Source: an uncultured Pseudomonadota bacterium
Lineage (GTDB): Bacteria; Pseudomonadota; Gammaproteobacteria; Burkholderiales; SG8-39
Length of the DNA: 64,000 bases
Assembly (NCBI GenBank): GCA_963739205.1
Contig: CAVTZJ010000003.1
Coordinates: 385,507-449,506, forward strand
Direction of reading: 5' to 3'
Shown: piece by piece, positions 9,791 through 60,357 of the stretch
Position numbering within the stretch: position 1 is the first letter of the stretch
How the letters are laid out: each line of letters starts with the position of its first letter
Position numbers and translations under genes: made by a program
The notes under the pieces: model-generated
Database searches by the model: none
Seen by the model: only the letters and a program-made list of their open reading frames with translations
What the model was told of the DNA's origin: nothing

Positions 9791-10854
9791 GTGCGTTCCG
9801 TCAGCTCGCGCTTGCGCACCGCCGAGGGCAGCAGGCCGGCGGGGCGGAACAGCATCACCAACACCATCGCAAAGCCGAACAGCAACATGCGGATCACCTC
9901 GGGCTCGATGAGCATGCGACCGAACAGCGCCTGCTGCACCGGCGCCACCGAGAAGCGCAGGATTTCCGGCACGAACGAGAGCAGCACCGCACCCAGCACC
10001 ACGCCCCAGACGTTGCCCATGCCGCCCAGCACGACCATCGATACCACCAGGATCGACTCGACGAGGACGAAGCTCTCTGGCGAGATGAACTCCTGGATCG
10101 CCGCGAACACGCCGCCGGCAAGCCCGCCGAACGTCGCGCCCATCGCGTAGGCGAGCAGCTTGAGATTCGTGGTGTTGATGCCCATCGCTCGCGCCGCGAT
10201 TTCGTCCTCGCGGATGGCCTCCCAGGCACGGCCGATGCGCGAGTCCTGCAGCCTCAGGTTGAGCCCGATGATCACCGCGACGAACACGATGAGCAGGTAG
10301 TAGTACTTGATCGGCCCGGAGAATTCCAGGCCGAGGATTCTCTGGTTGGTGGCAAAGTTCAGGCCGTCGATGCGGAACGGGTCGATGCGGTACACGCCCT
10401 GCGGACCGTTGGTTATATTCACCGGCTGCGCGAGGTTGTTGAGGAATATCCGGACGATCTCGCCGAAGCCGAGCGTCACGATGGCGAGATAGTCGCCGCG
10501 CAACTTGAGGGTAGGGGCACCGAGCAGGACGCCGAACAGCGCCGCGATCGCTGCACCGATCGGCAGGATGACCCAGAACGGCAGATGCAACCCGAACTGC
10601 GGGCTCGCGAGCAGCGCGTAGGTGTAGGCGCCGACGCCGTAGAAAGCGATGTAGCCGAGATCGAGCAGCCCGGCGAAGCCGACCACGATGTTCAGGCCGA
10701 GCGCAAGCATCACGTAGAGCAGCGCGAGATTGGTGACCCGCACCCAGGCGGTGCCGATCTGCGTCACGGCGAACGGCAAGACGAAGAGGGCGGCAGCGAC
10801 GAGCGCCAATCCACCCCAGAACAGTGCCCGGTTGCGATACGCTGCCGTCCTCAT
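9787..10854 (-). CDS. livM: branched-chain amino acid ABC transporter permease LivM
   Basis: 355 aa, polytopic, with the LGLNIVVGFAGLLDLGYIAFYGVGAY motif typical of LivM. Confidence 0.9.
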   Translation of the reverse strand: MRTAAYRNRALFWGGLALVAAALFVLPFAVTQIGTAWVRVTNLALLYVMLALGLNIVVGFAGLLDLGYIAFYGVGAYTYALLASPQFGLHLPFWVILPIGAAIAALFGVLLGAPTLKLRGDYLAIVTLGFGEIVRIFLNNLAQPVNITNGPQGVYRIDPFRIDGLNFATNQRILGLEFSGPIKYYYLLIVFVAVIIGLNLRLQDSRIGRAWEAIREDEIAARAMGINTTNLKLLAYAMGATFGGLAGGVFAAIQEFISPESFVLVESILVVSMVVLGGMGNVWGVVLGAVLLSFVPEILRFSVAPVQQALFGRMLIEPEVIRMLLFGFAMVLVMLFRPAGLLPSAVRKRELTERT

Positions 10855-30183: not shown

Positions 30184-31830
30184 CTAGCGCCACGCAATCG
30201 GCAGGCGCACCGTGATCGCGACGCCGTCGCCGGCGGGCAGGTTGTCCGCCGCGATCGTGCCGCCGTGGAACTCGGCGATCAGGCGTGCCACGTACAGGCC
30301 CAGGCCGAGGTGCGGCACGGCGCCGCGCCGCTCGCCGCGCAGCGAGATCATCGAATCGAACAGCCGGCCCTGCATCTCGGGCGGCAGCAGGGGTCCGCGG
30401 TCGACCACCTTGAGAAGCGCCGTACCGCGTTCCTCTTCCAGCGAGACGCGGATCGGGCTGCCCGGGGTTGCGAAATCCACGGCGTTCTCCACCAGCTTGT
30501 CGAGCAGCTGCGCGGCCAGGTCCGGCGAACCCTCGACGTCCATGCGCCGCTCGGGAAGCTCTAGCGCGAAGCGCGCCTGCGGGTAAGCCAGGCGGTAACC
30601 CTCGACGCAACCGCGTACCACCGGCACCAGGTCGTAGCGCTCGCGCTCGGATGCGCGCAGGCTCTGCTCCAGCCGCGAGGCTTCCATCATTCGTTGCAGG
30701 ATGGTGTTCAGCCGAGCGAGCCCTTCCTCGGCGCGCTCGATGTACAGGCGCCGCTCGGCGGGCTCGGCGGCGAGCTGCAGGTTCTCCAGCGACGAGCGGA
30801 CCACCGCGATCGGCGTGCGCAGCTCGTGCGAAAGACGATCGGCCATGCTCTCCAGATAAGCATGATGCTGCGCGAGGCGCGCCAGCATGGCCGAGAAGCT
30901 GCGCGACAGGTCGCCGATCTCGTCGCCGGCATCGGAGCCGGCCGCGAGACGCGTGATGCGGCCGCGCGCGTCGATCGCCGACTCGGCTTCGTCGCGCAGC
31001 CGGCGGATACGCTGCGACAGTCGCGTCGCGTAGGCGATCAGCAGCGCACCGACGCCCGCGAACGCCGCCAGCGTGAGCGCGAGCAGGCGCTCGAGCGCGG
31101 CGCTGCGCAGCGAGACGATCGGGTTGGTCGTCTCCTCGGCCACCACCGCGCCGGCGACCTCGTCGCCCGACCAGATGGGATAGGCGGAGGAGAGCACCAC
31201 GGCGCGGCCGTCCGGGGTGCGGCGCATGCGCGTGCCCGGCGTTCCCTGCAGGGCGGCCGTGATGTCGCGGCTGGTGGCGAGCACGTCGTCGGGCAAAGCT
31301 TCGGCGAAGTCCTCCGTCGGCCCCGGGATCAGCCAGCCGATTGCCCCGTGCCACCAGGAGCGCAGTAGACCGTCCTGCTCCGGCGGTACCGGCTGCCTCA
31401 GGCTGCCGGCGAGCGCGAGTACCTGGTAGCGCCGGTTCACCACCCAGATGCGCGAGCTGGCACGCTCGACTCCGCGCAGGATGGCGGCGATCTCTTCCCT
31501 TGCAGGGGCCGCCGCAACGGCATCCTCGCGCGCCAGCGGTACGTCCGCCTCTGTGCCGCCAGCGCCCCCGCTTTGCTGCGTCAGCCGCTGCAGCTCGGCC
31601 TCGGCCTCGCGTCGCAGCGTATCGTCGCGCTCCGGAACCGCGGCAAGGAGCTGCGGGCGGTCGTGCAGCGCGGTCGCGACTGCCCGCGCGGTGGCGAGCA
31701 GCGCGCGCTCCTGTCCCTCGAGCAGGAAGCGCTCCATCTCGCCCACGTAGAGCCATCCTGCCCATGGCAGCGCCAGCATGGCGAGCGAGACCAGCGCGAG
31801 CTTGACCCGCAGGGTAATGCGCACGCGCAT
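30184..31830 (-). CDS. sensor histidine kinase (dedicated-sortase-system type)
   Basis: ORF 30184..31896 trimmed to MRVRITLRVKLALVSLAML. H-box LSHELRTPIAVV, N-box LVENAVDF, G-boxes DRGPLLPPE / GLGLYVARLI. It follows the response-regulator gene by 7 nt. Confidence 0.85.
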   Translation of the reverse strand: MRVRITLRVKLALVSLAMLALPWAGWLYVGEMERFLLEGQERALLATARAVATALHDRPQLLAAVPERDDTLRREAEAELQRLTQQSGGAGGTEADVPLAREDAVAAAPAREEIAAILRGVERASSRIWVVNRRYQVLALAGSLRQPVPPEQDGLLRSWWHGAIGWLIPGPTEDFAEALPDDVLATSRDITAALQGTPGTRMRRTPDGRAVVLSSAYPIWSGDEVAGAVVAEETTNPIVSLRSAALERLLALTLAAFAGVGALLIAYATRLSQRIRRLRDEAESAIDARGRITRLAAGSDAGDEIGDLSRSFSAMLARLAQHHAYLESMADRLSHELRTPIAVVRSSLENLQLAAEPAERRLYIERAEEGLARLNTILQRMMEASRLEQSLRASERERYDLVPVVRGCVEGYRLAYPQARFALELPERRMDVEGSPDLAAQLLDKLVENAVDFATPGSPIRVSLEEERGTALLKVVDRGPLLPPEMQGRLFDSMISLRGERRGAVPHLGLGLYVARLIAEFHGGTIAADNLPAGDGVAITVRLPIAWR

Positions 31831-31837
31831 TGCGGCC

Positions 31838-32527
31838 TCAGGCCTTCCAGCGGTAGCCCATGCCGTAGACCGTGTCGATTCGGTCGAACGCGGCATCGAC
31901 GGCGAGGAACTTGTGTCGTATGCGCTTTACGTGCGAAGTGACCGTGGCGTCGTCGACGACCAGGTTTGCTTCGCGCATCAGCTGGTCGCGATTCTTGACG
32001 TGGCCCGGGAACTTGGCGAGCGCGTGCACCATCCAGAACTCCGTCAGCGTGAGCGCGACGGATCGACCCTGCCAGCTTACGCTGAAGCGCTTAAGGTCGA
32101 GCGCGAGCGCGCCGCGCTCGAAGCGCTCCTCGGCCACGGGTGGCTCGCGCGCGAGATCGGCGCGGCGAAACAGCGCCGCGATGCGCGCCGTGAGGTGCGG
32201 CAGGCTCACGTCCTTGGTGAGATAGTCGTCGGCACCCAGACGCAGGCCGGCGACCACGTCGAAGTCGCTGTCGCGCGCGGTCAGGAAGATGATCGGCAGC
32301 GCGGCCGAGAGCGCGCGCAACTCGCGGCACAGCGCGAAGCCGCCGTCCGCGTCCTCCCCCAGGCCGATGTCGATGATGGCGAGGTCGGGCAGACGCGACT
32401 TCATCGCGGCGAGCGCCTCGGCGCGGCCGCCGTAGGCGGCCACCTCGTAGCCGTAGCGGCCGAGCGCGGCGGCGTAGTTGGCGCGTATGGCAGGGTCGTC
32501 CTCGACGATGGCGATGCGGCGCGGCAT
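31838..32527 (-). CDS. OmpR-family response regulator (dedicated-sortase-system type)
   Basis: ORF 31838..32584 trimmed to MPRRIAIVEDDPAIR. Receiver Asp in DLAIIDIGL and a winged-helix C-terminus ending TVYGMGYRW. Confidence 0.85.
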   Translation of the reverse strand: MPRRIAIVEDDPAIRANYAAALGRYGYEVAAYGGRAEALAAMKSRLPDLAIIDIGLGEDADGGFALCRELRALSAALPIIFLTARDSDFDVVAGLRLGADDYLTKDVSLPHLTARIAALFRRADLAREPPVAEERFERGALALDLKRFSVSWQGRSVALTLTEFWMVHALAKFPGHVKNRDQLMREANLVVDDATVTSHVKRIRHKFLAVDAAFDRIDTVYGMGYRWKA

Positions 32528-32567
32528 GACATCGAATATAGCCGATCGCTGCGCGTTCTCCGCCCGC

Positions 32568-32584
32568 TGCCACCGGATTGCCAC
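32568..32584. promoter_or_regulatory. direct repeat TGCCAC-N5-TGCCAC (11-bp period), candidate response-regulator binding site
   Basis: Lies in the 149-nt divergent spacer between the response regulator and the sortase-target gene. Helical-turn spacing is what OmpR-family dimers use. The repeat is short, so chance occurrence is possible. Confidence 0.25.
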
Positions 32585-32676
32585 AATTGCTCAGCGCTGC
32601 GCCCTTTGCGCGCCGCGCGCCCGCCCCGGCGGGCGCCTGTAATCGGCTTCCAGCACGCACCAACGATGGAGGCGCC

Positions 32677-34725
32677 GTGAGCAAGCCCGCAAAAAGAACC
32701 CTGGCCGGACGGATCGCGCTCGATCTCATCGCATCGGTGGCGCTCGCCGCCGCGTTGGGCATCGTGACCGCCATTGCGCTCGCCGGCGTGACGCTTCTGT
32801 TCGCGAGCCAGGCGCGGGCAGCCGATGCGCCGGGCGAGGGCACCCTGCTCCTGCGCCCGCGTGCCGGCGGCAAGACGCTCGAAGCGCCGCTGCAGTCGAC
32901 CGCGGTGGCGTTCCAGGTCTCGGGCATGGTGGTGCGCGCGCGCGTGGTGCAGACCTTCCGCAATCCGGGCGAGGGCTGGTACGAGGGCGTCTACGTGTTC
33001 CCGCTGCCCGAGAATTCGGCCGTCGACCGCCTGCGCCTGCGCGTCGGCGAGCGCACCATAGAAGGAGAGATTCAGGAGCGTGAGGCGGCCCAGAAGACCT
33101 ACGCGGCGGCGCGGGCGCAGGGCAGCCGCGCAGCGCTGCTCGACCAGGACAGGCCCAACATATTCACCACCAGCGTGGCGAACATCGGCCCGCACGAGAC
33201 CATCGTGGTCGAGCTCGAATACCTGGAGACGCTGCGCTACCGGGACGGCCGCTTTTCGCTGCGCTTTCCGATGGTGGTCGGACCGCGCTATATCCCGCAC
33301 GGCGTGACGGACGCGGCGCGCATCACGCCCGTCGTGCTGCGTCCGCAGGAGGGGCGCGCGTCCGTCAACCCGGTTTCGATCCGCGTCGAGCTGGATGCAG
33401 GCGTGCCCCTCGCCGAGGTTTCGAGCCCCTACCACCCAGTGGACGTCAAAACGCTCGGCGAGGGGCAGCGCGAAATCACGCTCGCCGAAGGCAGCACTCC
33501 GGCCAATCGCGATTTCGTGCTGCGCTGGGCGCCGCGCCCCGAAGCGGCGCCTCGGCTCGCCTGGTTTACGCAGTCAGAGGGCGGGCACCACTACGCGCTG
33601 CTGATGCTGATGCCACCGGCAGCGGCGCACGAGGCGCCGCTTCCGCGCGAAGTGATCTTCGTGCTCGACACCTCGGGCTCGATGGCCGGCGCGTCGATCC
33701 GCCAGGCGCGCGAGGCGCTCGCGCTGGCGCTCGAACGCCTGACGCCGCAAGACCGCTTCAACGTCATCGAATTCAACTCGACCGCGAGAGCGCTGTTCGC
33801 GGAAGCTCGCCCTGCCGCGCCCGCGCAGGTGCGGCGCGCGATCGGCTGGGTGCGCGGCCTCGAGGCGCGCGGCGGCACAGAGATGGCCTCCGCCCTGACG
33901 CTCGCATTGAACGGCGGCGATGCGGACTCCGGCGTGAGGCAGGTGGTCTTCCTCACAGACGGCGCAGTCGGCAACGAAGAGCAACTGTTTCGGCTGATCC
34001 AGGCGCGGCTGGGCGACTCGCGCCTCTTTACCGTGGGAATCGGCTCGGCGCCGAACAGCCACTTCATGCGCAAGGCGGCCGAGCTCGGGCGCGGCACGTT
34101 CACCTATATCGGCCGCGTCGACGAAGTCGGCGCGAGGATGTCCGAGCTCTTCGCCAAGCTCGAAGCGCCCGTGCTGAAGGGGATCACGCTGCAATGGCCC
34201 GAGGCGGCGCACGCCGAAGCCTGGCCCGCGCGCGTGCCCGACCTCTATGCCGGCGAACCGCTCGTGGTGAGCGCTTCGCTCGAGCGCCTCGAAGGCGAGC
34301 TGCGCGTGAGCGGAGTGCGCGCGGGGCGGGTGTGGCAAGCGCGTGTGCCGCTTGCCGCGGGCGCGCAGGCCACCGGCATCGATTCGCTCTGGGCACGCTC
34401 GAAGGTGGCCTCGCTCATGGACTCGTTGCGCGACGGCGCACCTCCCGAAGCGGTGCGCGAGCAGGTGATCGCGCTCGCGCGCGCACACCGCCTGGTGACC
34501 CGTTACACCAGCTTCGTCGCGGTCGAGCGTACGCCGGCTCGGCCCGCCGACGCGCCGCTCGCGCGCGCCGATTTGCCGACCAATCTGCCCGAGGGCTGGG
34601 AATACGACAAGGTGTTCGGCGAGCTGCCGCAGACCGGCACCGACAGCCGCTTCGCGCTGTTGAGCGGGATGCTGTCGCTCCTGCTCGCCGCAATTTTGGT
34701 CGGCTGGCGCCGGAGGTTTGCTTGA
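32677..34725 (+). CDS. sortase target protein: VIT domain + von Willebrand factor A domain + C-terminal LPQTG sorting signal
   Basis: ORF 32578..34725 trimmed to GTG 32677, 4 nt after GGAGG. N-terminal hydrophobic signal ending ARA-AD. VIT-like region (FQVSGMVVRARVVQTF...YVFPLPENSAV). vWA MIDAS motif in FVLDTSGSM. The C-terminus is LPQTG (34624..34638), then a hydrophobic stretch and RRRFA. Confidence 0.85.
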   Translation: MSKPAKRTLAGRIALDLIASVALAAALGIVTAIALAGVTLLFASQARAADAPGEGTLLLRPRAGGKTLEAPLQSTAVAFQVSGMVVRARVVQTFRNPGEGWYEGVYVFPLPENSAVDRLRLRVGERTIEGEIQEREAAQKTYAAARAQGSRAALLDQDRPNIFTTSVANIGPHETIVVELEYLETLRYRDGRFSLRFPMVVGPRYIPHGVTDAARITPVVLRPQEGRASVNPVSIRVELDAGVPLAEVSSPYHPVDVKTLGEGQREITLAEGSTPANRDFVLRWAPRPEAAPRLAWFTQSEGGHHYALLMLMPPAAAHEAPLPREVIFVLDTSGSMAGASIRQAREALALALERLTPQDRFNVIEFNSTARALFAEARPAAPAQVRRAIGWVRGLEARGGTEMASALTLALNGGDADSGVRQVVFLTDGAVGNEEQLFRLIQARLGDSRLFTVGIGSAPNSHFMRKAAELGRGTFTYIGRVDEVGARMSELFAKLEAPVLKGITLQWPEAAHAEAWPARVPDLYAGEPLVVSASLERLEGELRVSGVRAGRVWQARVPLAAGAQATGIDSLWARSKVASLMDSLRDGAPPEAVREQVIALARAHRLVTRYTSFVAVERTPARPADAPLARADLPTNLPEGWEYDKVFGELPQTGTDSRFALLSGMLSLLLAAILVGWRRRFA

Positions 34726-35420
34726 AACGCGACCAGGAGCTGTGCCTGGGCGTGGAATGCGCCTGGCCAAAATCGAATGCAGCGGTTCGCAGCAAAGGCG
34801 TCGGGCGCCTGCGTCTCGTCCTCGTCGCGCTCCTCGTCGCAACCGGCGGCTGGCAGTTCGCGCGCGGCGCCTGGATCCAGGCCAAGGCCTGGGTCGCTCA
34901 GGTGCTGATCGCACGCGCCTGGGAGCGCACGCTCGCGGGCGAGACGCATGCGAGGCCCTGGCCCTGGGCCGATACCTGGCCGGTCGCACGCCTGTCGGTA
35001 CCGTCGCTCGGCGTCGAGCGCTACGTCCTCGAGGGTGCCGACGGCGCGGCGATGGCATTCGGCCCGGGCCACCTCGGTAACACCGCGCTGCCTGGGGCGC
35101 CCGGCAACAGCGTGATCAGCGGGCATCGCGACACGCACTTCGCATTCCTGCGCGAGCTCGCGCTTGGAACGACGATCGTCGTCCAAACGCCCGACGGCGC
35201 GCGCCACGCATATACGGTACGCCGGATGCGCGTACTCGACCGAAGCGACGGCTGGGTCGCGGCGCAGGGCGGCCCCGCCGGGCTGACGCTCGTGACCTGT
35301 TTTCCCTTCGACGCGCTGCGCGCGGGCGGCGCCGAGCGCTACGTGGTGTGGGCTTACGCCATCGACGAACACAAGGACCGCGGCGGCGAGCGCGCGGATC
35401 GGACTAGCCACCTCCTCTAG
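34722..35420 (+). CDS. sortase (proteobacterial dedicated type)
   Basis: C-terminal part of ORF 34194..35420. There is no in-frame ATG. I start at TTG 34722, 5 nt after GGAGG and overlapping the target stop (TTGA); the alternative is GTG 34752. One N-terminal TM helix, catalytic His in ISGHRDTHF, Cys in LTLVTC, and downstream Arg in ERYVVWA. Confidence 0.8.
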   Translation: MKRDQELCLGVECAWPKSNAAVRSKGVGRLRLVLVALLVATGGWQFARGAWIQAKAWVAQVLIARAWERTLAGETHARPWPWADTWPVARLSVPSLGVERYVLEGADGAAMAFGPGHLGNTALPGAPGNSVISGHRDTHFAFLRELALGTTIVVQTPDGARHAYTVRRMRVLDRSDGWVAAQGGPAGLTLVTCFPFDALRAGGAERYVVWAYAIDEHKDRGGERADRTSHLL

Positions 35421-35453
35421 GGCCGATCCCCGCTCGCGCGCTTCGGCAGGCGC

Positions 35454-46725: not shown

Positions 46726-47562
46726 TCAGCGCAGCTTGCGCAGCAGCTGGTCCAAGTGATCGAGGCCGGAGTAGTGCACGATCAGCTTGCCGCTCCCCTT
46801 TCTACCCGGGCGTATCTCCACCGTCGTGCCGAGCCGCTCCGAGACCTCTTCCTCGAGCCGAGCCACATCGCGGTCAGGCTTGCGCCGCTGATGAGAGGCG
46901 TTGCCGCGCAGCATCCTGGCGACGAGCGCTTCGGCCTCGCGCACCGAAAGGCCGCGAGTCGCAATGCGCTTAGCAGCCTCCGCCTGGCGCGCTCCGTCTA
47001 GCGCGAGGATGGCGCGCGCATGACCCATATCCAGCACGCCTTCCATGACCATCGCCTGAACCGGCTTGGTGAGCTTTAGCAGGCGCAAGAGGTTGGTCGT
47101 AGCGCTGCGAGAACGTCCAACGGCATCAGCCGCCTGCTCGTGGGACATCTTGAACTCATCGATGAGCCGCTGCAGTCCCGACGCTTCCTCCATGGGGTTC
47201 AGGTTTTCGCGCTGGATGTTCTCGATCAGTGCCATCGCGAGAGCAGCTTCGTCCGGTACGTCGCGCACCAGTGCCGGGACCTCGTCCAGCCCGGCCATTT
47301 GCGCGGCTCGCCAGCGCCGCTCGCCAGCGATCAGCTCATAGCGGTCGCGCGCTACCGGGCGCACGAGCAGGGGCTGCATCAGCCCCTGAGACTTGATGGA
47401 CGAGGCCAGCTCGGCAAGAGCTTCCTGGTCCATTTTCGTGCGCGGCTGGTATTTTCCGGGGCGGATGCGGCCCACGGGCAGTGTCGCGAGCGCCTCGCGC
47501 GGCGGCTCGTCTTCGCCAAGTAGCGCGTCGAGCCCACGTCCCAGTCCCTTTTGCTTAATCAT
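46726..47562 (-). CDS. parB: chromosome partitioning protein ParB
   Basis: 278 aa, MIKQKGLGRGLDALL N-terminus, ParB box LIAGERRWRAAQMAG, and HTH region. Confidence 0.93.
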   Translation of the reverse strand: MIKQKGLGRGLDALLGEDEPPREALATLPVGRIRPGKYQPRTKMDQEALAELASSIKSQGLMQPLLVRPVARDRYELIAGERRWRAAQMAGLDEVPALVRDVPDEAALAMALIENIQRENLNPMEEASGLQRLIDEFKMSHEQAADAVGRSRSATTNLLRLLKLTKPVQAMVMEGVLDMGHARAILALDGARQAEAAKRIATRGLSVREAEALVARMLRGNASHQRRKPDRDVARLEEEVSERLGTTVEIRPGRKGSGKLIVHYSGLDHLDQLLRKLR

Positions 47563-47578
47563 GGCTATTCCATTCGCC

Positions 47579-48364
47579 CTATGCCGCAGCGGGCAATGCG
47601 CCTTTGCTGCGCGTTATGATTTCCTCTGCCAGCGCGATGTAGGCCTGGGCGCCCTTCGAGGTCTTGTCCCAAACGACGGCCGGCACGCCGTAGCTCGGCG
47701 CCTCGGCGAGTCGCACGTTGCGGGGCACGAGCGTCTGATAGACCTTGTCCCCGAAGTGCGACTCCAGTTGCTGCGATACCTGTAGGGAGAGCGTGTTACG
47801 CGGGTCGTACATGGTGCGCAGCAAACCCGCAATCTCGAGCCTCGGGTTGAGATGGGCGCGTACCCGCTTGATGGTGCCGACCAGGTCGGAAAGTCCCTCG
47901 AGCGCGTAGTACTCGCACTGCATCGGGATCAGCACCGCGTCTGCCGCCACCAGTCCGTTGATGGTAAGCAGGGACAGTGAAGGCGGGCAATCGATCAGGA
48001 TGTAATCGTAATCGGCGCTAACGCCAGCGAGCGCCTCCTTGAGGCGCAACTCGCGCCGTTCGATGCCGACGAGTTCGACCTCGGCGCCGGCGAGATCGCG
48101 GTTAGCCGGCAGCAGATCGTAGCCGCCGTTTTCGGAACGCAGGCGAACTGTGGCGAGTTCGCTCAAGCCGAGCAGCAGGTGATAGACGGTGTGCAGGGCG
48201 CCGCGCTTGTCGATGCCGCTGCCCATGGTGGCATTGCCTTGCGGATCCAGATCGACGAGCAAGACGCGCTGACCTGCCTGCGCAAGACCCGCAGCCAGGT
48301 TGATAGTGGTGGTCGTCTTGCCGACACCACCTTTTTGATTCGCCACCGCGAACACGCGCGCCAT
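47579..48364 (-). CDS. parA: chromosome partitioning ATPase ParA (Soj)
   Basis: ORF 47579..48610 trimmed to MARVFAVANQKGGVGKTTT (deviant Walker A). The alternative ATG at 48370 abuts the rsmG stop. Confidence 0.92.
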   Translation of the reverse strand: MARVFAVANQKGGVGKTTTTINLAAGLAQAGQRVLLVDLDPQGNATMGSGIDKRGALHTVYHLLLGLSELATVRLRSENGGYDLLPANRDLAGAEVELVGIERRELRLKEALAGVSADYDYILIDCPPSLSLLTINGLVAADAVLIPMQCEYYALEGLSDLVGTIKRVRAHLNPRLEIAGLLRTMYDPRNTLSLQVSQQLESHFGDKVYQTLVPRNVRLAEAPSYGVPAVVWDKTSKGAQAYIALAEEIITRSKGALPAAA

Positions 48365-48366
48365 GC

Positions 48367-49005
48367 TCATGTCCTCGCGCGGCACAACACGAGATGACGC
48401 TCGGCATCGAGCAGCGGAACCTCCAGGCGGACCACCTCGCCGCAGCCGGCACTGGCAGGCACGCGCGCCAGCTCCTCGTGCGGGTAGACACCCTTCATCG
48501 CAGCCAGCACGCCTCCCGGAGAGACCAGGTGCCGGCATGCCGCGACGAAGTCGGCGAGCTCGGCGAAACCGCGCGAAATTACCACCACGAACAGGCGGGC
48601 CGGCCGCCAATGCTCGGCGCGTCCTGTATGCACGGTTACGTTGTGCAAAGCGAGTTCGATCGCCGCCTGCCGCAGGAAGGCGGCCTTCTTCTGATTGCTG
48701 TCATTCAGAGCTACCTGCCATTCGGGACGCGCGATGGCGAGTGGAATTCCTGGCATGCCCCCGCCGGAGCCGACATCCGCGAGCGCGGCGTCGGAACCGA
48801 CCATCGGCAGGTGCGGCGCGACGGCCAGCGAGTCGAGCAGATGCTGAGTGACCATCTTCAGGGGATCACGAATCGCCGTCAGGTTGTACGTGCGGTTCCA
48901 CTTTTCGAGCAGACCGAGAAATGCGACCAGCTTGTCGCGCGCGCCTGCCGGCAGGGCCAGCGGCAATAGCACAAGCCCGCGATCCAGCGTGACCTCGGGT
49001 GTCAT
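48367..49005 (-). CDS. rsmG: 16S rRNA (guanine527-N7)-methyltransferase RsmG (GidB)
   Basis: 212 aa, [13 protein letters not shown] and [16 protein letters not shown] motif. Its start overlaps the mnmG stop. Confidence 0.9.
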
Positions 49006-50903
49006 GCGCTCTTCTTCTTCTGCGGCTGGCGCGCGAAACCTCGCTTCAAGTGAACCAGCAGCAGAGAGATTGCTGCCGGCGTAATTCCCGAAATGCGCGC
49101 AGCCTGCCCGATGGTCTCCGGCCGATGCCGTGCGAGCTTTTGGCTCGCTTCAACCGACAGGCCGCGTACCGCCGCGTAGTCGATGTTCTCTGGGAGACGT
49201 AGCGCCTCATACGCTTCACTGCGCGCGACCTCTTCGCGCTGACGCGCGATGTAGCCTTGGTATTTCGCCTGGATCTCGACCTGCTCGGCGACGACGGGGT
49301 CGGCACAACCTTCCCCGGTACCTGGAAGACTCATCAGCGCTACATAGGAGACGCCAGGGCGCTTGAGCAATTCCAGAAGTGAGTGCTCGCGTTCTAACTC
49401 CTGTCCGCAGACCCTGAGGGCGTCCGCGGAGCAGACGGTACGCGGGCCCAGCCGGACGGCGGCGAGGCGTTGCTGCTCACGCGCGATCGCGTCGCGCTTG
49501 CGGTTGAACTGGTCCCAGCGCGCGTCCTCCACTACGCCCAGCTTGCGCCCTGCCTCGGTCAATCGAAGGTCGGCGTTGTCCTCGCGCAGCATCAACCGGT
49601 ACTCCGCGCGGCTGGTGAACATGCGATAGGGCTCCGAGACGCCGCGCGTGATCAGGTCGTCGACAAGCACGCCGAGGTAAGCCTCGTCGCGGCGCGGACA
49701 CCATGACTCTTGCTCCTTTACGCGCAGGGCCGCGTTGATGCCCGCCAGCAATCCCTGCGCAGCGGCCTCTTCGTAACCGGTCGTGCCGTTGATCTGACCA
49801 GCGAAAAACAGCCCCGCGATGGTCTTCGTTTCGAGCGAGGACTTTAGATTCCGCGGATCGAAGTAGTCGTATTCGATAGCGTAGCCGGGGCGCAGGATAT
49901 GCGCGGCCTCGAGCCCGCGAATCGAGCGCACGAGCTCGAGCTGAACGTCGAAGGGTAAGCTCGTCGAAATCCCGTTGGGATAGATCTCGCTCGTCGAGAG
50001 CCCCTCGGGTTCCAGGAAAATCTGGTGACCGCTCCTCGCAGCGAAACGGTGGACCTTGTCTTCGATGGAGGGGCAATAGCGGGGACCGACGCCCTGAATC
50101 ACGCCGGTAAACATCGGCGATCGATCGAGCCCGGCGCGGATGATGTCGTGCGTTCGCGGGTTCGTGTGCGTGATCCAGCACGAGCGCTGCTCCGGGTGCA
50201 TGCCGCGCGCTCCCACGAATGAGAACACCGGCTCCGGAGAGTCGCCTGGCTGCTCTTCCATGACCGAAAAATCAATGGTGCGGCCGTCCAGACGCGGAGG
50301 GGTGCCGGTCTTCAGGCGGCCAACCGGCAACCGCAACTCGCGCAGTTTCGCGGCGAGCGTGATTGAGGCCGGGTCACCGGCGCGTCCCGCCTGATGGCTT
50401 TGCAGACCGACGTGTACCAGCCCCGAGAGAAAGGTTCCGGTCGTCAATACGACCGCGCGTCCCCGAAAGCGGATGCCAAGCTGCGTGACGACCCCGACGG
50501 CGCGCTCGCCCTCGAGCATGATGTCATCGACCGCCTGCTGGAACAGGGTCAGATTCGACTGGGTTTCGAGTCGCTTACGGATCGCCCTGCGGTAGAGCAC
50601 TCGGTCGGCCTGTGCCCGTGTCGCACGCACCGCCGGCCCTTTGGACGAGTTGAGAGTCCGGAACTGGATTCCTGCCTCGTCGGTCGCGAGTGCCATCGCG
50701 CCTCCGAGAGCATCGATCTCCCGCACCAGGTGACCCTTGCCTATTCCTCCGACAGAGGGATTGCACGACATCTGGCCGAGCGTTTCGATGCTGTGCGTAA
50801 GCAGCAGGGTGCGGCAGCCCATGCGCGCAGCCGCAAGAGCCGCCTCTGTACCCGCGTGGCCCCCACCCACCACGACGACGTCAAACTCAGTCGGAAACTG
50901 CAT
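49002..50903 (-). CDS. mnmG: tRNA uridine-5-carboxymethylaminomethyl synthesis enzyme MnmG (GidA)
   Basis: 633 aa, [19 protein letters not shown] motif, conserved throughout. Confidence 0.96.
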
Positions 50904-50997
50904 CTTTCAAGGACGTCCGGGTCTTTCGTACGCGGGGATTCTTGGGGGGAGCGCAATGATACGTGAATGGGGAATACGAGACTAGCCGCCCGCTTGT

Positions 50998-51013
50998 TGT
51001 TCCACGTGAAACC
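50998..51013. promoter_or_regulatory. parS: parS centromere-like site (TGTTCCACGTGAAACc, 15/16 to TGTTNCACGTGAAACA)
   Basis: Read directly from the sequence in the mnmG-MFS divergent spacer. Coordinates are anchored on flanking ORF-track stops and starts. Confidence 0.85.
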
Positions 51014-51026
51014 TTAAGCGCTCGCG

Positions 51027-51042
51027 TGTTTCACGTGGAACA
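51027..51042. promoter_or_regulatory. parS: parS centromere-like site (TGTTTCACGTGGAACA, 16/16 to consensus, opposite orientation)
   Basis: Its reverse complement is TGTTCCACGTGAAACA. It lies 13 nt from the first site, and together they form a 14/15-bp inverted repeat. Confidence 0.9.
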
Positions 51043-51084
51043 TCACCAGAAGCCGCGCGTACGTTGTGCCAGAATCCGGCGCCG

Positions 51085-52272
51085 ATGATTTCCCTCGCGC
51101 GCTATTCCAGGTTGCTCGCAGTGCCCCACCTCAAGGCAACCATCGTTGCGTCCGTGATCGGGCGGCTGCCTGTCGGCATTGCCGGACTCGCAATCCTGCT
51201 GGTCAGCCAAGAGCAATCCGGGTCTTTCGGCCGTGCCGGCGCAACGACAGCCAGCTATTACGTCGGCTTGGCGAGCGTAGCGCCGTTCATCGGCAGACTG
51301 ATCGATCGTCGCGGACCCGGTGCCATTCTGCGCGCCTGCGGTGCTCTCTATCCGACCGCATTGGCGGGACTCACGGTAGCGATCGTCGCGGGATCGTCCC
51401 TTGGGCTCGTTCTGCCGCTGGCTGCCCTCGCGGGCGCCTCCATTCCACCGATCACGGTGTGCATGCGGACCTTTCTCAAGCGACGTTTGGGCGACGACGC
51501 ACTCCTTGCAACGGCGTACTCACTCGAATCGGTGCTGATTGAGTCGTTGTTCATCATTGGTCCGATGCTCGTCAGCGCCTTGGTGGCGCTCGCGTCTGCC
51601 GTTTGGGCGGTCGTCTTCGCCGCGCTGACCGGCGCCGGGGGCACCTTTCTTTTTCTGCGTACGCCGCCAATTCTCGACTGGCGCATCGAGACGCGGCGAG
51701 CTTCTAGCCTGTTCGGGCCGCTGAGTGACCCGCATTTTCTGCGCGTCCTGGGCGTCGTGCTGTGTTATTCGATGGCTTTCGGCCTGGTGGAGATCGGTAC
51801 TACTGCATTCGCATCCGAGGCTGGTATTCCTGCTTTCGCGGGACTGCTGCTCGGATTGATGAGCATCGGCAGCGTGCTCGGCGGGCTCGCCTATGGCAGC
51901 CGCAGCTGGCACAAACCTCTTGAGCGACAATTCGCGATCGTCCTCGCGCTGATGGGACTTGGAATCGCGCCGCTTACCGGAATCACCACCGCATGGCTGT
52001 TCGCACTCTTCGCGGTCATCGCCGGCATCGTCATGGCGCCGGCACTCACGATCCAGTCGATGCTGGTCGCTAAGTCAGCCATGCCAGAGCACGCGACAGA
52101 GGCCTTTACGTGGTCTGCCACGGCCCTGCTCGCCGGCGTTGGGCTTGGTGTCGCCGCGGGCGGCGGACTCCTTGAGAGCGGTAATTCGCGCCTCGTGCTC
52201 GGCACCGCGACTGCATCAGCGCTTGCCGGAGCTCTGGCTGCCGGAATCGGACTAAGACACTTTAGACCGTAG
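51085..52272 (+). CDS. MFS transporter
   Basis: ORF 51064..52272 trimmed to MISLARYSRLL. About 12 predicted TM segments by eye. Substrate unknown. Confidence 0.75.
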   Translation: MISLARYSRLLAVPHLKATIVASVIGRLPVGIAGLAILLVSQEQSGSFGRAGATTASYYVGLASVAPFIGRLIDRRGPGAILRACGALYPTALAGLTVAIVAGSSLGLVLPLAALAGASIPPITVCMRTFLKRRLGDDALLATAYSLESVLIESLFIIGPMLVSALVALASAVWAVVFAALTGAGGTFLFLRTPPILDWRIETRRASSLFGPLSDPHFLRVLGVVLCYSMAFGLVEIGTTAFASEAGIPAFAGLLLGLMSIGSVLGGLAYGSRSWHKPLERQFAIVLALMGLGIAPLTGITTAWLFALFAVIAGIVMAPALTIQSMLVAKSAMPEHATEAFTWSATALLAGVGLGVAAGGGLLESGNSRLVLGTATASALAGALAAGIGLRHFRP

Positions 52273-52290
52273 ATTCAATATCTTATATTG

Positions 52291-52312
52291 CCAAAAAGCG
52301 GTCGGCACCGCT
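52291..52312 (-). terminator. weak rho-independent terminator after pckG
   Basis: 6-bp stem AGCGGT-cggc-ACCGCT overlapping the pckG stop, followed on the minus strand by TTTTTGG. Confidence 0.35.
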
Positions 52313-54149
52313 ACGCGGCCAAGCGTGCGTGCAGCGCCGTTCTGCCACGCTCAAGGTCGCCAGGTAAGTGTGTGCCGAGCTTGCTCAGCAGATCGTCGTG
52401 CGACGAGAGCTCTTCTCGCCACGCGCTTTGCTCGATTCCAGATAGCTCCCGGAATTGATCCTTGGAAAATCTCTCCAACCCTGTCCAAAACAGGTCCTCG
52501 TAGCGCGGCATGACCCCAAGCGGTGTCTGGGCGCCTTGTGCGCGGCCGTGGCAACGCTCGACGATCCAGCTCAGTACTCTCATGTTCTCGGCAAATCCCG
52601 GCCAGATGAATTTCCCACTTGAGTCTCGCCGGAACCAGTTCACGCGGAAGATCCGGGGCGGATGGTGCGCCGCTTTGCCCATTTTGAGCCAGTGCGCGAA
52701 GTAGTCGCCGATGTTGTACCCGCAAAACGCGAGCATGGCCATCGGATCGCGCCGCACCACGCCCACTTTCCCAGTAATCGCGGCGGTGGTCTCGGATCCC
52801 AGCGTCGCGCCCATGTACACCCCATCTTCCCAGCTTGCCGCCTCGACCACCAAAGGTACGGTGGTGGACCGACGGCCACCGAAAATGAACGCCGAGATCG
52901 GCACTCCGCCGGGATCCTCCCATTTGGCGTCCATCGAGGGGCACCGCGAGGCCGCCACCGTAAAGCGCGCATTCGGATGCGCTGCGACACGTCCGCAACC
53001 CGGCGTCCACTCCTTGCCCTGCCAGTCGATGAGCCGCGCAGGCGGCTGATCGGTCATGCCCTCCCACCACACATCGCCTTCGGGCGTCAGTGCGACGTTC
53101 GTGAAGATGACATTCGACTCCAGCATCTTCATCGCATTCGGGTTCGTCGCCTGCGAGGTTCCCGGCGCGACACCAAAGAAGCCTGCCTCCGGATTGATCG
53201 CGTAGAAACGCCCGTCGTGCCCGGGCTTGATCCAAGCGATGTCTTCGCCAATCGTGGTCACCTTCCATCCCTTGAAGGCCGGCGGCGGGATGAGCATCGC
53301 CAGATTCGTCTTGCCGCAGGCGCTGGGAAACGCCGCCGTGATATAGGACTTCTCGCCGGTGGGAGACTCCACACCCAGGATCAACATATGCTCGGCCAGC
53401 CATCCTTCGTCGCGCGCCATCACCGAGGCGATGCGCAGTGCCAGGCATTTCTTTCCGAGCAGCGCGTTTCCGCCGTAGCCTGAGCCGTAGGACCAGATCT
53501 CGCGCGACTCAGGGAAGTGCACGATCCACTTGTCCTTGTCGTTGCACGGCCAGGGTACGTCTTTGGCGCCCGGCGCAAGCGGCGCGCCCACCGAGTGCAT
53601 GCAGGGGACGAAATCTCCGTCCTCGCCGAGCCAATCGGCGACCGCGCGCCCCATGCGCGTCATTAACCGCATGTTCACTGCGACGTACGCGGAGTCGCTC
53701 AGCTGCACGCCGATTTGCGCGATGTGCGAGCCGATCGGACCCATCGAGAACGGCATGACGTACATCGTCCGCCCGCGCATACAGCCATCGAAGAGCCGCT
53801 CGAGTGTGTTGCGCATCTCGCCAGGATCCACCCAGTTGTTGGTTGGCCCCGCGTCCTCCCTCGTCCTACTGCAGATGAAGGTGCGATCCTCCATGCGCGC
53901 CACGTCGTTGGGATGGGAGCGCGCCAGGTAGCTGCCCGGCCGCAGCGTCTCGCTAAGCTTGATGAAGGTTCCCGCGCTGACCAGCTCGCCGCACAGCCGG
54001 TCGTACTCCCCTTGTGATCCGTCACACCAGACAATGCGCTCAGGCTTCGCAAGAAGCGCCATCTCCAAGACCCACTTGCGCAGCCCGTGGTGTCGCACCC
54101 AGGCCGGTGCTGTTGCGCTGTCGGTTCTTGGTTCTTGGGGTCGGTTCAT
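52311..54149 (-). CDS. pckG: phosphoenolpyruvate carboxykinase (GTP)
   Basis: ORF 52311..54215 trimmed to [16 protein letters not shown] kinase-1a motif and [15 protein letters not shown]-type length (about 612 aa). Confidence 0.92.
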
Positions 54150-54235
54150 CGCAGGAACTCCAGAAAAGCAAAACGGCCCTAGGGTTCCGGGCCGGAGATT
54201 TCGATAAAGATTCAAATTTATTGTAGCACTGGCTT

Positions 54236-55015
54236 CTAGCGCACCCGTAGCGTCATGAAGAGCCGCCTGAACGGGTAAAGCGTGCTCCCGTCGCTACGCT
54301 TGTCGTATATCGTCGACACCCTGCGTCGGTATTCCGCCTCGAAAGGCTCGCGCAGCGCGCCCGGCAAACCGTCCAGCAAGGGAACCAGCAGAGTCGAGCG
54401 TGTCCAGTCGGCGACAGGGTTATCGCCCCCGAGAACCTGCAGGTACTCCGTTTCCCAGATATCCACGGAGTCGCCGTGCGGCGCCAACAACTCGTAATAC
54501 TCCTGCGGCCCGAGCACCGGGCGCAGGCGCAGGCTCGCAAGCAGGTGCTCGCGGTAAGGCGACTCCTGGGCGAGCTCCAGCGCCATACGGTGCGAAGCCG
54601 CATCGAAATTGCGCGGCATCTGCACAGCCAATATACCCTGGGCCCCAAGCATCCCGAGCAAGCGCGGAAATAGCTCGGCATGATCGTCTAGCCAGTGCAG
54701 CGCCGCGTTGGAGAACAGTAGATCGAACGGCGACTGCGCCCGCCAGGCGCCGAGCTCCGCCTGCTGCCAGACGATCGACCCGCCGCGACTCCGCGCCGTC
54801 TCGAGCATCTCGGGGGAGGCGTCGATCCCCAGGACGCTTGCCTCCGGCCAGCGCTGCGCAAGGAGCCGGGTGCCATTGCCGCTGCCGCAACCAAGATCCG
54901 CGATGCATCGTGGCGTCCATCCGGACTCTGGTCCCGGAACGCGCGCCAGCAAATCCAGCAACGGCCGCAGGCGTGCGTCCGCGAAGGCTTCGTAACGCTG
55001 CGGATCCCAAGGCAT
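54236..55015 (-). CDS. tam: SAM-dependent methyltransferase, trans-aconitate 2-methyltransferase-like
   Basis: ORF 54236..55150 trimmed to [21 protein letters not shown] motif [11 protein letters not shown] and NAALHWL, as in Tam. Confidence 0.75.
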
Positions 55016-55029
55016 GCTAGGCAGCCCTC

Positions 55030-58048: not shown

Positions 58049-58062
58049 ATGGATTTTCCTGC

Positions 58063-58287
58063 TTAGTGCCGGGCGCCGGGAACGGGGTCGTGACCGCCAC
58101 GACTCCAGGGTCCGCAGCGGCAAACGCGACGTGCGCTAAGCCAGCCGCCGCGCAGCGCGCCATGGCGGCGCAATGCCTCCTCGGCATACTCGGAGCAACT
58201 GGGATGGAAGCGGCACGACGGCGGGAGCAGCGGGCTGACGAAGAAGCGATAGCCTCGCACCAGGAGGCGTAGGAGCCGGGAAATCAT
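58063..58287 (-). CDS. yidD: membrane protein insertion efficiency factor YidD
   Basis: 74 aa, [23 protein letters not shown]. Its start overlaps the rnpA stop. Confidence 0.9.
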
Positions 58288-58640: not shown

Positions 58641-58653
58641 GCCCCGCAGTGGC

Positions 58654-60311: not shown

Positions 60312-60357
60312 GCGCTTGCAGTCTACAGAACAAGCTGTGTACGAACTCGGTGTCGAT

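Follow-up and report, generated by a model that had tools for sequence, protein, structure and literature searches.

The closest described systems are the Shewanella locus SO2192-SO2196, which encodes PghK/PghR, PdsO, an ITI-family target and SrtA, and the S. algae locus with pdsS, pdsR, pdsO, a target and a sortase. Their regulator, target and sortase are orthologous by NCBIfam to those of the cassette described here, and in these loci, as in the cassette, the kinase/regulator pair is divergent from a target-sortase operon whose VIT-VWA target carries a C-terminal sorting signal. The canonical Shewanella system has a fifth gene, pdsO, encoding an OmpA-like protein (PMC11580497; bioRxiv 10.1101/2023.05.05.539549). 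In S. oneidensis, antibiotics that target peptidoglycan switch on PghKR, as does the loss of PBP1a, with the sortase operon induced more than 17-fold, and in S. algae a pdsS G547W mutant raises the operon 126- to 799-fold. Deletion of the sortase operon in S. oneidensis left ampicillin resistance unchanged, and the Shewanella kinase/regulator pair has the sortase-independent outputs blaA and relV. Signalling by PghK needs a CBM9-like module (residues ~75-270) (Yin et al. 2023 preprint), which is also missing in most beta-proteobacterial homologues (Yin et al.). Three PghK residues are essential for signalling, of which R177 and Y178 lie in this module and I289, by published numbering, in subdomain I. 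Relative to the Shewanella loci, the cassette has no pdsO, and its kinase has no CBM9-like module.

The walls to which class D and E sortases anchor proteins are of the diaminopimelate type. Members such as Bacillus anthracis SrtD (2ln7), Clostridium perfringens SrtD (4d70) and Thermobifida fusca SrtE have the same fold and His-Cys-Arg triad as the cassette sortase, which nevertheless scores far under the class D/E cut-offs (140–165 bits) and differs in its diderm host, in the single substrate encoded next to it, and in having a long N-terminal helix and an ECAWP motif on the cytoplasmic side. VIT and VWA domains are also found in the eukaryotic inter-alpha-trypsin-inhibitor heavy chains, from which a C-terminal propeptide is removed and the new C-terminus placed covalently on a glycan; different enzymes and an ester to chondroitin sulphate or hyaluronan are involved there, and the likeness is an analogy only. 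The GlyGly-CTERM proteins handled by rhombosortase are reported to have their C-terminus processed and modified. Homologous VIT-VWA proteins bear interchangeable C-terminal signals (LPXTG, GlyGly-CTERM or PEP-CTERM) served by unrelated enzymes (Haft 2011, PMC3237569). The rhombosortase/GlyGly-CTERM and exosortase/PEP-CTERM systems thus have in common with the cassette the VIT-VWA cargo, a signal made of motif, helix and basic tail, and one enzyme with one adjacent target (PMC3237569), but the enzyme is an intramembrane serine protease or an exosortase rather than a cysteine transpeptidase, and the motif is another.

A four-gene sortase cassette in a Burkholderiales chromosome

We analyzed a 64-kb stretch of DNA (the window) from an uncultured soil Burkholderiales bacterium. 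At positions 30184-35420, it contains four adjacent genes in two divergent pairs, the histidine kinase and response regulator genes on the (-) strand and the target and sortase genes on the (+) strand, as the preliminary description had reported. Its assignment of these genes to the proteobacterial dedicated sortase system also holds; the target, the sortase and the regulator each exceed the curated cut-off of their NCBIfam model, and the kinase falls short of its own. The E-values for the cassette genes (1e-228, 1e-63, 6e-112 and 9e-158) are not those of chance matches, and we regard membership of the class GN, or dedicated, sortase system as practically certain. That system is already catalogued, and the cassette is a further copy in a common stripped-down form with a shortened sensor kinase and no OmpA-like partner. 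The cassette had been called complete, which is not borne out, as a six-frame translation of the window contains no pdsO or other OmpA-like ORF (E. coli OmpA-C, E ≤ 10; four PdsO-like queries, E ≤ 1). With only 149 bp between regulator and target, the locus does not have the five-gene form with PdsO (TIGR03789).

The location is chromosomal, ~24 kb from dnaA, with both dnaA and dnaN inside the window. The same synteny, with the ATP synthase operon adjoining, is seen in three related metagenome contigs, and relatives are Burkholderiales MAGs. A horizontal-transfer island was rejected, given a GC content equal to that of the flanks and the conserved synteny. All four genes are under purifying selection (dN/dS 0.12–0.36). 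Longer versions of three ORFs (570 aa for the kinase, 248 aa for the regulator and 715 aa for the target) and the many overlapping antisense ORFs were dismissed as artefacts of the ~70% GC content; relatives have the shorter genes called.

The target gene (32677-34725, (+) strand) encodes a protein of 682 aa from a GTG start preceded by GGAGG at 32668-32672. It scores 760.9 bits against TIGR03788 (cut-off 551.65) and 23.8 against TIGR01167, the LPXTG anchor model (cut-off 15.9). A long N-terminal signal/anchor (aa ~1–48, ending ARA|AD) is followed by a VIT domain (aa 72–182; Pfam VIT, 114 bits) and a VWA domain (aa 325–475; Pfam VWA_3, 82 bits) with a complete MIDAS made up of DTSGS (aa 331–335; 33667-33681), GGTEM and LTDGA, and then by an uncharacterized C-terminal half. 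The protein ends in a tripartite sorting signal on the (+) strand, with LPQTGT at aa 650–655 (34624-34641), a hydrophobic helix of 19 residues (34651-34707) and the basic tail RRRFA (34708-34722). A target of ~680 aa with VIT and vWA domains and this ending had been noted from the start, and it is the sole ORF in the 64-kb window with a C-terminus resembling a sorting signal. Its dN/dS is 0.17–0.19. Compared with the LPQTGT of the cassette, the gamma-proteobacterial loci L058 and L074 have LPQTAT or YPATAT; the family motif is LPxTAT, with LPxGAT in sister lineages, and positions 4 and 5 vary among loci (T/G and A/G, respectively). The recognition motif of the family is [LFMY]-P-x-[TG]-[AG]-T rather than LPXTG. 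A simple rule of cleavage between the Thr and Gly of LPXTG does not fit LPxGAT, which has a Gly in place of the cleaved Thr.

The sortase gene (34722-35420, (+) strand; 232 aa) begins with a TTG that overlaps the target TGA by 4 nt as TTGA, with GGAGG 5 nt upstream (34712-34716). The ORF contains no in-frame ATG. This start had been proposed from the single sequence, and the comparison now supports both it and the 4-nt overlap, since the NTGA junction is conserved in related loci; ATG or GTG takes the place of the TTG in seven of them, giving eight loci with the cassette included. The ORF is intact in this frame. An in-frame GTG at 34752 was rejected as the start, given that the upstream residues Leu-9 and Gly-10 are conserved and that relatives start at NTGA. 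The protein scores 214 bits against TIGR03784 (cut-off 158.25), covering profile positions 2–174 of 174, and 99 bits against Pfam Sortase. A cytoplasmic N-terminal motif, LGVECAWP (34746-34769, (+) strand), which is conserved across loci with codons that change synonymously, precedes a transmembrane helix (aa ~30–51) and the periplasmic catalytic domain. The predicted catalytic signatures proved to be invariant in 65 homologues, with His-135 in GHRDTH (35124-35126), Cys-193 in TLVTC (35298-35300) and Arg-206 (35337-35339), all on the (+) strand. An AF2 model of the sortase (pLDDT 79.7 overall and >90 in the core, with a helix at residues 24–71) has only sortases as its top PDB matches, including 4d70 (SrtD) at an rmsd of 2.8 Å over 138 columns; the PDB holds no structure of a class GN enzyme. 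Outside class GN, the best HMM scores are those for class D and class E (87 and 63 bits; 2ln7, E 5e-13), and the structural matches to these classes have an rmsd of 2.8–4.2 Å and 28–32% identity. The dN/dS is 0.25–0.36. Within the 64 kb, the sortase is encoded beside a single target in a Gram-negative genome.

A short-sensor kinase, its regulator and a direct-repeat box

The kinase (30184-31830, (-) strand) is a PdsS/PghK-like sensor histidine kinase of 548 aa in a short-sensor form. Its longest ORF extends to 31896, and close relatives have 548–549 aa called. The chain runs from TM1 through a periplasmic PDC/Cache-like domain of ~235 aa to TM2, HAMP, HisKA (with the H-box SHELRTP) and HATPase_c, the last three domains also being found with Pfam. 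TIGR03785 is its top family by about 368 bits over the next, with a match in two stretches, an N-terminal one and the best one at profile positions 259–703. The preliminary description had taken scores below the trusted cut-offs as grounds for giving up the attribution. The target (760.9/551.65), the sortase (214/158.25) and the regulator (372.7/335.7) pass, and the kinase, at 526.6 bits against 612.2, does not. The deficit has a benign cause, in that a CBM9-like periplasmic beta module of ~190 aa is missing; alignment with long orthologues shows a non-conserved linker of ~45 aa instead. Even in long kinases the module escapes Pfam, and its absence here is therefore judged from the alignment. 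Among full-length orthologues, those of L074 (595 bits) and L053 (540 bits) also fall below the cut-off and that of L058 (634 bits) passes. By alignment, the sensor subdomain that is retained is homologous to PghK subdomain I. An AF2 model of the sensor (pLDDT 81) has a single PDC/Cache-like domain, and in the PDB it comes closest to the WalK extracellular domain and other PDC/Cache sensors. The kinase dN/dS is 0.16–0.18.

The regulator (31838-32527, (-) strand) is a PdsR/PghR-like member of the OmpR family with 229 aa, the length also called in relatives, and consists of Response_reg (receiver) and Trans_reg_C domains with Asp-53 as the phospho-acceptor. It scores 372.7 bits against TIGR03787 (cut-off 335.7), and the next family scores 157.8 bits. 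Its gene adjoins that of the kinase, with its stop codon 7 nt upstream of the kinase start, and is divergent from the target gene; its dN/dS is 0.12–0.19. In the 149-bp divergent intergenic region lies a conserved direct repeat, TGCCAC-N5-TGCCAC (32568-32584, (+) strand), in an 11-bp register, ~41–57 bp upstream of the regulator start codon and ~93–109 bp upstream of that of the target. We take this repeat to be a putative PdsR box on the strength of its conservation. It is conserved in five close loci, and a like repeat in the same orientation is present in 22 of 36 divergent regulator/target intergenic regions, including those of Woeseiaceae, Acidobacteriota and Gammaproteobacteria. Against a background of 0.23 hits per kb, the enrichment of this direct repeat in such regions of distant lineages is ~8-fold. 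The copy at this position is the only perfect one within the 64-kb window, and no matching box was seen there at a beta-lactamase gene or relV. Scans of the regulator/target intergenic region gave neither a sigma-70 consensus promoter nor an intrinsic terminator. We consider regulation of the cassette by the adjacent kinase/regulator pair to be very likely.

Reduced loci and a conserved 3' hairpin

With 22 of 47 related loci, the four-gene form outnumbers every other architecture, and at least five of these loci retain the same four genes; 10 of the 47 have an adjacent OmpA-like gene and 36 do not. The minimal form, with neither PdsO nor the CBM9 module, is the commonest near this lineage and is also found in Acidobacteriota, and PdsO and the module are therefore not essential to the core chemistry. 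The architecture of the cassette recurs in the cultured Thauera sp. Sel9 (L024), a possible experimental model. Further afield, the class GN sortase-target pairs of Nitrospira are accompanied by an OmpA-like gene and lack a neighbouring kinase/regulator pair, and a sortase-target pair in a Gemmatimonadota MAG lies on a contig too short to classify. Closer to the cassette, soil lineages have undergone deletions in which the kinase/regulator pair is kept, with loss of the target in L004, L005, L010, L086 and L087 and of both target and sortase domain in L088, L098, L101, L105, L111, L125, L137, L161 and L162. In related lineages without the target the sortase is still under selection, so a strict model of one sortase and one target falls short. 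Several of the reduced loci have, beside the kinase/regulator pair, an ORF of ~60 aa that comprises only the ECAWP motif and a transmembrane helix.

The 3' end of the operon carries a conserved GC-rich hairpin of 72 nt (35376-35447, (+) strand). It spans the sortase stop codon, so that the last ~15 sortase codons run into it, and reaches to within 6 nt of the stop codon of a thiolase gene that converges on the operon. The loop, CCACCUCCUC, looks like an anti-Shine-Dalgarno sequence (CCUCC). The DNA of the hairpin is invariant, although the neighbouring coding sequence has a dS of ~1. A sortase C-terminal KDRGGER was accordingly rejected as a conserved peptide, being the translation of the invariant 5' arm with no wobble variation. 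RNAalifold predicts 23 pairs, with 95.4% of cells paired and compensatory changes in 6 pairs (slid controls, 36–51% paired), and the covariation score was matched by none of 500 shuffles. An invariant G-U pair favours the + strand. Stability alone does not differ significantly from shuffles (z -1.17), and the case for the hairpin therefore rests on covariation. The window contains one copy. Of 45 full metagenome copies, the 35 with detectable Pds-type genes all have an upstream Pds-type regulator on the opposite strand, usually with the kinase, the remaining 10 being on contigs with too little upstream DNA. A dispersed REP-like repeat was rejected on these grounds, namely the single window copy and the position beside Pds-type regulator genes wherever upstream DNA suffices, and a known RNA family was rejected for want of an Rfam match. 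Among more distant loci, the hairpin is absent outside the immediate clade.

The hairpin persists in relatives that have lost the target, the sortase or both, and may serve as a terminator, stabilize the RNA or give rise to a 3'-end-derived RNA. CpxQ is a 3'-UTR-derived envelope-stress small RNA, and the hairpin is like it in being the structured 3' end of an mRNA under what would be, for the cassette, an envelope-stress two-component system, but it may be only a terminator or stabilizer. Because the hairpin, the box and short 5' ORFs outlive the deletion of target and sortase domain in sister lineages, the selected output may include the hairpin RNA or a small protein. That in this clade the kinase/regulator pair has among its outputs a 3'-end-derived regulatory RNA, a small ECAWP-TM membrane protein acting back on the kinase, or both, is a speculative idea to which we assign a low probability.

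Proposed mechanism and alternatives

In the mechanism that we propose, the kinase would detect a periplasmic envelope cue via its single PDC/Cache-like domain, the cue of the Shewanella orthologues being peptidoglycan damage, and would phosphorylate PdsR at Asp-53. Phosphorylated PdsR would bind TGCCAC-N5-TGCCAC and activate the target-sortase operon, and probably its own divergent operon too. Sec would export the target, whose C-terminal helix and RRRFA tail would keep it in the inner membrane, and the TTGA overlap would match production of the sortase to that of the target. Cleavage would follow Thr-653, between LPQT and GT, with a thioacyl intermediate on Cys-193 from which the target is passed to an amine, the likeliest acceptor being the meso-diaminopimelate side chain of a peptidoglycan stem peptide, in lipid II or the mature wall. 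The outcome would be a VIT-VWA module that binds in a metal-dependent manner and is fixed to the wall in the periplasm. On balance we favour the reading of the cassette as an intact, vertically inherited, chromosomal class GN sortase system in minimal four-gene form, this mechanism included. The preliminary description had listed signal, acceptor, anchoring site and role alike as unknown. For the signal this no longer applies, as PghKR senses peptidoglycan damage in Shewanella; for the others, our literature searches returned no report of acceptor, anchoring site, cleavage site, target location or sortase/target role for class GN members.

One alternative concerns the chemistry. In it, the same genes would encode a protease that matures the VIT-VWA protein by freeing it from the inner membrane, or an enzyme that links it to an acceptor other than peptidoglycan, for example a lysine of another envelope protein or an amino-lipid. 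The interchangeable signals on homologous VIT-VWA proteins, served by unrelated enzymes, suggest that release or anchoring in general outweighs wall chemistry, and the variability of motif positions 4 and 5 points in the same direction, as does the OmpA-like partner of many loci, a possible acceptor or dock. The last of these is countered by the cassette itself and by the 36 of 47 loci with no adjacent OmpA-like gene, from which it follows that PdsO is not a general acceptor; moreover, the conserved catalytic Arg and full sortase fold are typical of transpeptidases, and the nearest sequence relatives are the wall-anchoring class D/E enzymes. We therefore consider this alternative unlikely and transpeptidation, rather than simple cleavage, somewhat the better supported mode of action, with peptidoglycan as a tentative choice of acceptor.

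As to the cue, the missing CBM9-like module held R177 and Y178 in PghK, and what the short kinase senses may for this reason differ from the peptidoglycan glycan fragments sensed by the Shewanella kinase. It might respond to another periplasmic signal or to the condition of the sortase or the target itself, with, for example, the ECAWP motif and transmembrane helix as a small-membrane-protein partner. The lack of the module in most beta-proteobacterial homologues (Yin et al.), the conservation of LGVECAWP through synonymous codon changes and the ~60-aa ORFs beside reduced kinase/regulator pairs are all compatible with this. Set against it are the homology of the retained subdomain to PghK subdomain I, which holds the essential I289, and the predicted sensor structure, whose best structural matches are to the wall-sensing domain of WalK, and we regard a changed cue as possible but doubtful. 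Finally, the deletions in close soil lineages that spare kinase and regulator, together with the blaA and relV outputs of the Shewanella pair, could be read as signs that the cassette is a decaying or dispensable relic in which only that pair matters. All ORFs in the window are intact, however, with catalytic and MIDAS residues present, the dN/dS of target and sortase is 0.17–0.36 against two relatives, and the four-gene cassette has been kept in other loci, so that decay is very improbable.

For the question of what sortases do in bacteria with an outer membrane, the cassette narrows the field without giving an answer, and the family motif bears on the design of substrates. If the clade's output does include a 3'-end RNA or a small membrane protein, an envelope-stress module comparable to CpxQ or MgrB would be hidden inside a sortase cassette. 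Through its ties to a regulon for peptidoglycan damage and, in S. algae, to carbapenem heteroresistance, the system may also have clinical relevance.

The four genes of the cassette

Amid the many spurious overlapping open reading frames in the ORF listing, a consequence of the ~70% GC content, the region holds four real genes. On the minus strand, an OmpR-type response regulator of 229 residues (31838–32527) lies 7 bases upstream of a 548-residue histidine kinase with HAMP, HisKA and HATPase_c domains (30184–31830). Divergent from this pair, across an intergenic region of 149 bp, the plus strand encodes a 682-residue target protein with VIT and VWA domains, from a GTG at 32677 to 34725, and a sortase of 232 residues (34722–35420). 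The target's MIDAS motif is complete (DTSGS, T, D), and the protein terminates in LPQTGT, a 19-residue helix and RRRFA. The preliminary description of these genes is correct to within two residues, and its recognition of a known, computationally defined system was sound; the finding is real.

It had also matched the unit to the dedicated sortase system and named NCBIfam models as a check. Against these equivalog models the match was borne out for the target (TIGR03788, 760.9 bits against a cut-off of 551.65), the sortase (TIGR03784, 'class GN sortase', 214 against 158.25) and the regulator (TIGR03787, 372.7 against 335.7), whereas the kinase, at 526.6 bits, fell below the TIGR03785 cut-off of 612.2, yet far above its score for any other family (next best 159 bits). 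That cut-off is strict: full-length orthologues scored 595 and 540 bits, and a single one, with 634, clears it. Alignment with long orthologues (677–711 aa) revealed that the kinase lacks a ~190-residue beta-rich module, which explains its split match to TIGR03785; the module is likewise missing from the kinases of Rhodocyclales and some Acidobacteriota. A non-conserved linker of ~45 residues takes its place in the short kinases, and the flanking N-terminal helix and C-terminal sensor subdomain are kept in the kinase studied here. The remaining sensor is predicted to form a single PDC/Cache-like domain (pLDDT 81); in the PDB this domain best matches, at the level of fold only (E about 1e-5), the extracellular domain of WalK, a kinase of wall metabolism, and next the DcuS, CitA, DctB and Tlp3 sensors.

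The predicted model of the sortase (pLDDT 79.7) matched only sortases in the PDB, with the closest cores in class D, E and C enzymes; we found no class GN sortase structure there. His-135, Cys-193 and Arg-206 are invariant in 65 homologues. The sortase ORF contains no in-frame ATG, and a TTG at 34722 overlaps the TGA of the target, with GGAGG 5 nt upstream, so that CGG AGG, which encodes Arg residues in the basic tail of the target, also supplies the sortase ribosome-binding site. An alignment of eight loci shows NTGA retained at the junction and the start codon at an identical position; it is TTG in this cassette, and three relatives use GTG and four use ATG. All nine of the closest homologues among the matches listed are called at 232 aa, and residues 9–16 (LGVECAWP), upstream of an alternative GTG, are conserved while their codons change synonymously. 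From these sequence comparisons the TTG start and the layout for translational coupling, both anticipated in the preliminary description, are well supported.

Inheritance, architecture and sorting motif

The nearest sortase, at 91% identity, is found in Burkholderiales MAGs, and three related contigs carry the same set of four genes within the same neighbourhood. CoA-transferases, TauE and a HAD hydrolase flank the cassette at one end, thiolase and ChsH2-like genes at the other; an ATP synthase operon lies nearby. The conserved synteny, a GC content equal to that of the flanks and dN/dS ratios of 0.12–0.36 across all four genes (against two relatives) indicate that the cassette is intact, vertically inherited and under selection. 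An origin-proximal set occupies window positions 47500–62000, comprising gidA (49002–50903), mnmE, yidC, dnaA (58968–60311) and dnaN (60528–61634), and the cassette is therefore chromosomal, ~24 kb from dnaA. The replication origin probably lies inside the window; cumulative GC skew is lowest near 58–60 kb, and GC content falls to 0.56 at 60–62 kb. A separate drop in GC content, from ~0.69 to ~0.63, occurs at window position ~40000, at the start of the ATP synthase operon; the lower value persists through the window end.

A scan with one genome per species located relatives of the sortase in at least 593 genomes, and because the carriers include Nitrospira, Acidobacteriota and Gemmatimonadota, as well as Alphaproteobacteria, 'proteobacterial' is a misnomer. 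Architecture was counted in 47 of the best 80 loci, those with at least 6.5 kb of upstream sequence. The form seen here, with kinase, regulator, target and sortase but no OmpA-like gene, accounts for 22 of the 47; target and sortase stand alone in 14, an OmpA-like gene joins them without the kinase/regulator pair in 8 (mostly Nitrospira), two have the full five-gene Shewanella-type set, and one has the pair and sortase without a target. Target and sortase therefore form the invariant core, with the OmpA-like PdsO and the kinase/regulator pair as accessory modules. Among cultured carriers, Thauera sp. Sel9 has the short-sensor form lacking PdsO that is seen here, and S. oneidensis has the canonical one. 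No OmpA-like ORF was found anywhere in the window. The cassette is an ordinary copy of a common subtype, and its novelty is accordingly low.

Class GN sortase–target pairs were seen well outside the Proteobacteria, in Nitrospira (loci L021, L039, L050, L051, L065, L066 and L082), Acidobacteriota (L028, L030, L040, L043, L057, L078, L081 and L085) and Gemmatimonadota (L072); in Nitrospira a Pal-like OmpA gene precedes the two genes, and no kinase/regulator pair adjoins them. Single-ORF fusions of target and sortase, with the sortase domain C-terminal, occur at locus L012 (8069–10648) and in proteins P0213 (860 aa) and P0229 (805 aa), and are either real, through loss of the TGA at the NTGA junction, or the product of assembly indels.

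Across 63 targets the sorting motif is [LFMY]-P-x-[TG]-[AG]-T, with Pro at position 2 in every case (63/63), Thr (50/63) or Gly (12/63) at position 4, Ala (56/63) or Gly (7/63) at position 5 and Thr at position 6 (59/63). The consensus in this set is LPxTAT, with FPATAT in Woeseiaceae, and the LPQTG of this cassette is a minority form limited to its own clade plus a few others. In the closest sister lineages (other Burkholderiales, Rhodocyclaceae, Thauera) the motif is LPQGAT or LPRGAT, placing Gly at the expected scissile Thr (LPxGAT C-termini at L007, L008, L009, L011, L013, L016, L018, L019, L023, L024 and L054), which cautions against assuming Gram-positive rules.

Regulation and a proposed mechanism

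The intergenic region contains a perfect direct repeat, TGCCAC-N5-TGCCAC (32568–32584), conserved in close relatives and the sole perfect copy within the window. Of 36 divergent intergenic regions between regulator and target, 22 (Woeseiaceae, Acidobacteriota, Gammaproteobacteria) contain similar repeats in matching orientation, against a background rate of 0.23 direct repeats per kb. We infer a putative PdsR box; the Shewanella preprint reports no binding motif for the regulator. Directly upstream of the regulator ATG lies an invariant block, CGAATATAGCCGATCG (32533–32548, read on the minus strand), with a -10-like TATATT ~7 nt before the start codon and no Shine-Dalgarno sequence, and the regulator–kinase mRNA may be leaderless.

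At the regulatory level the class GN system has by now been partly characterised. The S. oneidensis orthologues of the kinase and regulator, PghKR (SO2192/SO2193), respond to beta-lactams, vancomycin, D-cycloserine and the loss of PBP1a by inducing blaA, relV and the sortase operon SO2194-96 (>17-fold) (Yin et al. 2023); PghKR was later employed as a biosensor (PMC13488354). In S. algae bacteraemia isolates a recurrent pdsS G547W mutation, which tracks carbapenem heteroresistance, increases the expression of sortase, target and pdsO 126- to 799-fold (PMC11580497).

From orthology and the conserved box, we propose that an envelope cue, probably peptidoglycan-related, would activate the kinase, and that PdsR~P would then bind the box and turn on the coupled target–sortase operon. 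The C-terminal helix would hold the exported target in the inner membrane, and the sortase would cut between Thr and Gly of LPQTGT and transfer the protein to an amine. By analogy with the closest characterised sortase classes, and given the regulon, peptidoglycan diaminopimelate would be the most plausible acceptor, a choice we put forward tentatively.

Other readings bear on separate parts of this scheme. The sortase might act purely as a maturation protease, or the acceptor might be something other than the wall; a literature search found no report of an acceptor or anchoring site for class GN targets. The short sensor, too, might answer a different signal: PghK signalling requires residues of its CBM9-like module, which its authors noted is missing from most beta-proteobacterial homologues. 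That the cassette is in decay is contradicted here by the selection data.

Reduced loci and the 3′ hairpin

An invariant 72-nt hairpin (35376–35447, plus strand) with a CCUCC-rich, anti-SD-like loop closes the sortase operon at its 3′ end. An apparent conserved peptide in the sortase tail ('KDRGGER...') was rejected, as the ORF there reads into the 5′ arm. The element is limited to this clade, with copies at L001, L003, L006, L007, L010, L086 and L087 and full copies at 45 metagenome loci among L088–L167; sizes range from 72 to 84 nt, with (CCU)n loop expansions in some, and no Rfam family matched. The structure is supported by covariation: among 18 distinct copies the paired fraction of cells is 95%, compensatory changes occur in six pairs, and the observed covariation was reached by no shuffle; an invariant G-U pair favours the sortase-sense strand. 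Wherever a metagenome contig extends far enough upstream of a copy, a Pds-type regulator is encoded there on the opposite strand, usually accompanied by its kinase. A divergent copy (45.6 bits) at L015 (687–756) is placed differently: it is found where the target gene ends, ahead of the sortase instead of behind it.

In sister Burkholderiales lineages the target is reduced to a signal-peptide mini-ORF and the sortase is retained. The target is gone at L004/L005 (9870–10004; remnant of 44 aa in L004), L010 (~9800–9995; ~65 aa), L086 (1837–2130; ~73 aa) and L087 (7574–7969), the last with a longer out-of-frame remnant that does not reach the start of the sortase. Purifying selection still acts on the sortases that lack a neighbouring target (dN/dS 0.15–0.27), and a strict model of one sortase and one adjacent target does not explain these orphans. 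Loci L088, L098, L101, L105, L111, L125, L137, L161 and L162 have lost the target together with the sortase catalytic domain; the kinase/regulator pair, box and hairpin remain, with only ~110–520 bp between regulator and hairpin.

LGVECAWP (34746–34769) is a clade-specific cytoplasmic N-terminal motif with a near-invariant Cys, and one lineage (L101, L111, L162) retains a ~60-aa ORF consisting of only the ECAWP motif and a TM helix, the catalytic domain having been lost. The motif may be a partner of the kinase. The reduced loci, orphan sortases and mini-ORF together show that loss of the 'dedicated' cargo leaves the kinase/regulator pair, box, 5′ end and hairpin in place. A mundane reading is possible, in which the promoter region serves the pair itself and the hairpin is a terminator between convergent genes; the invariance at the sequence level makes a regulatory RNA or small protein a candidate that invites testing.
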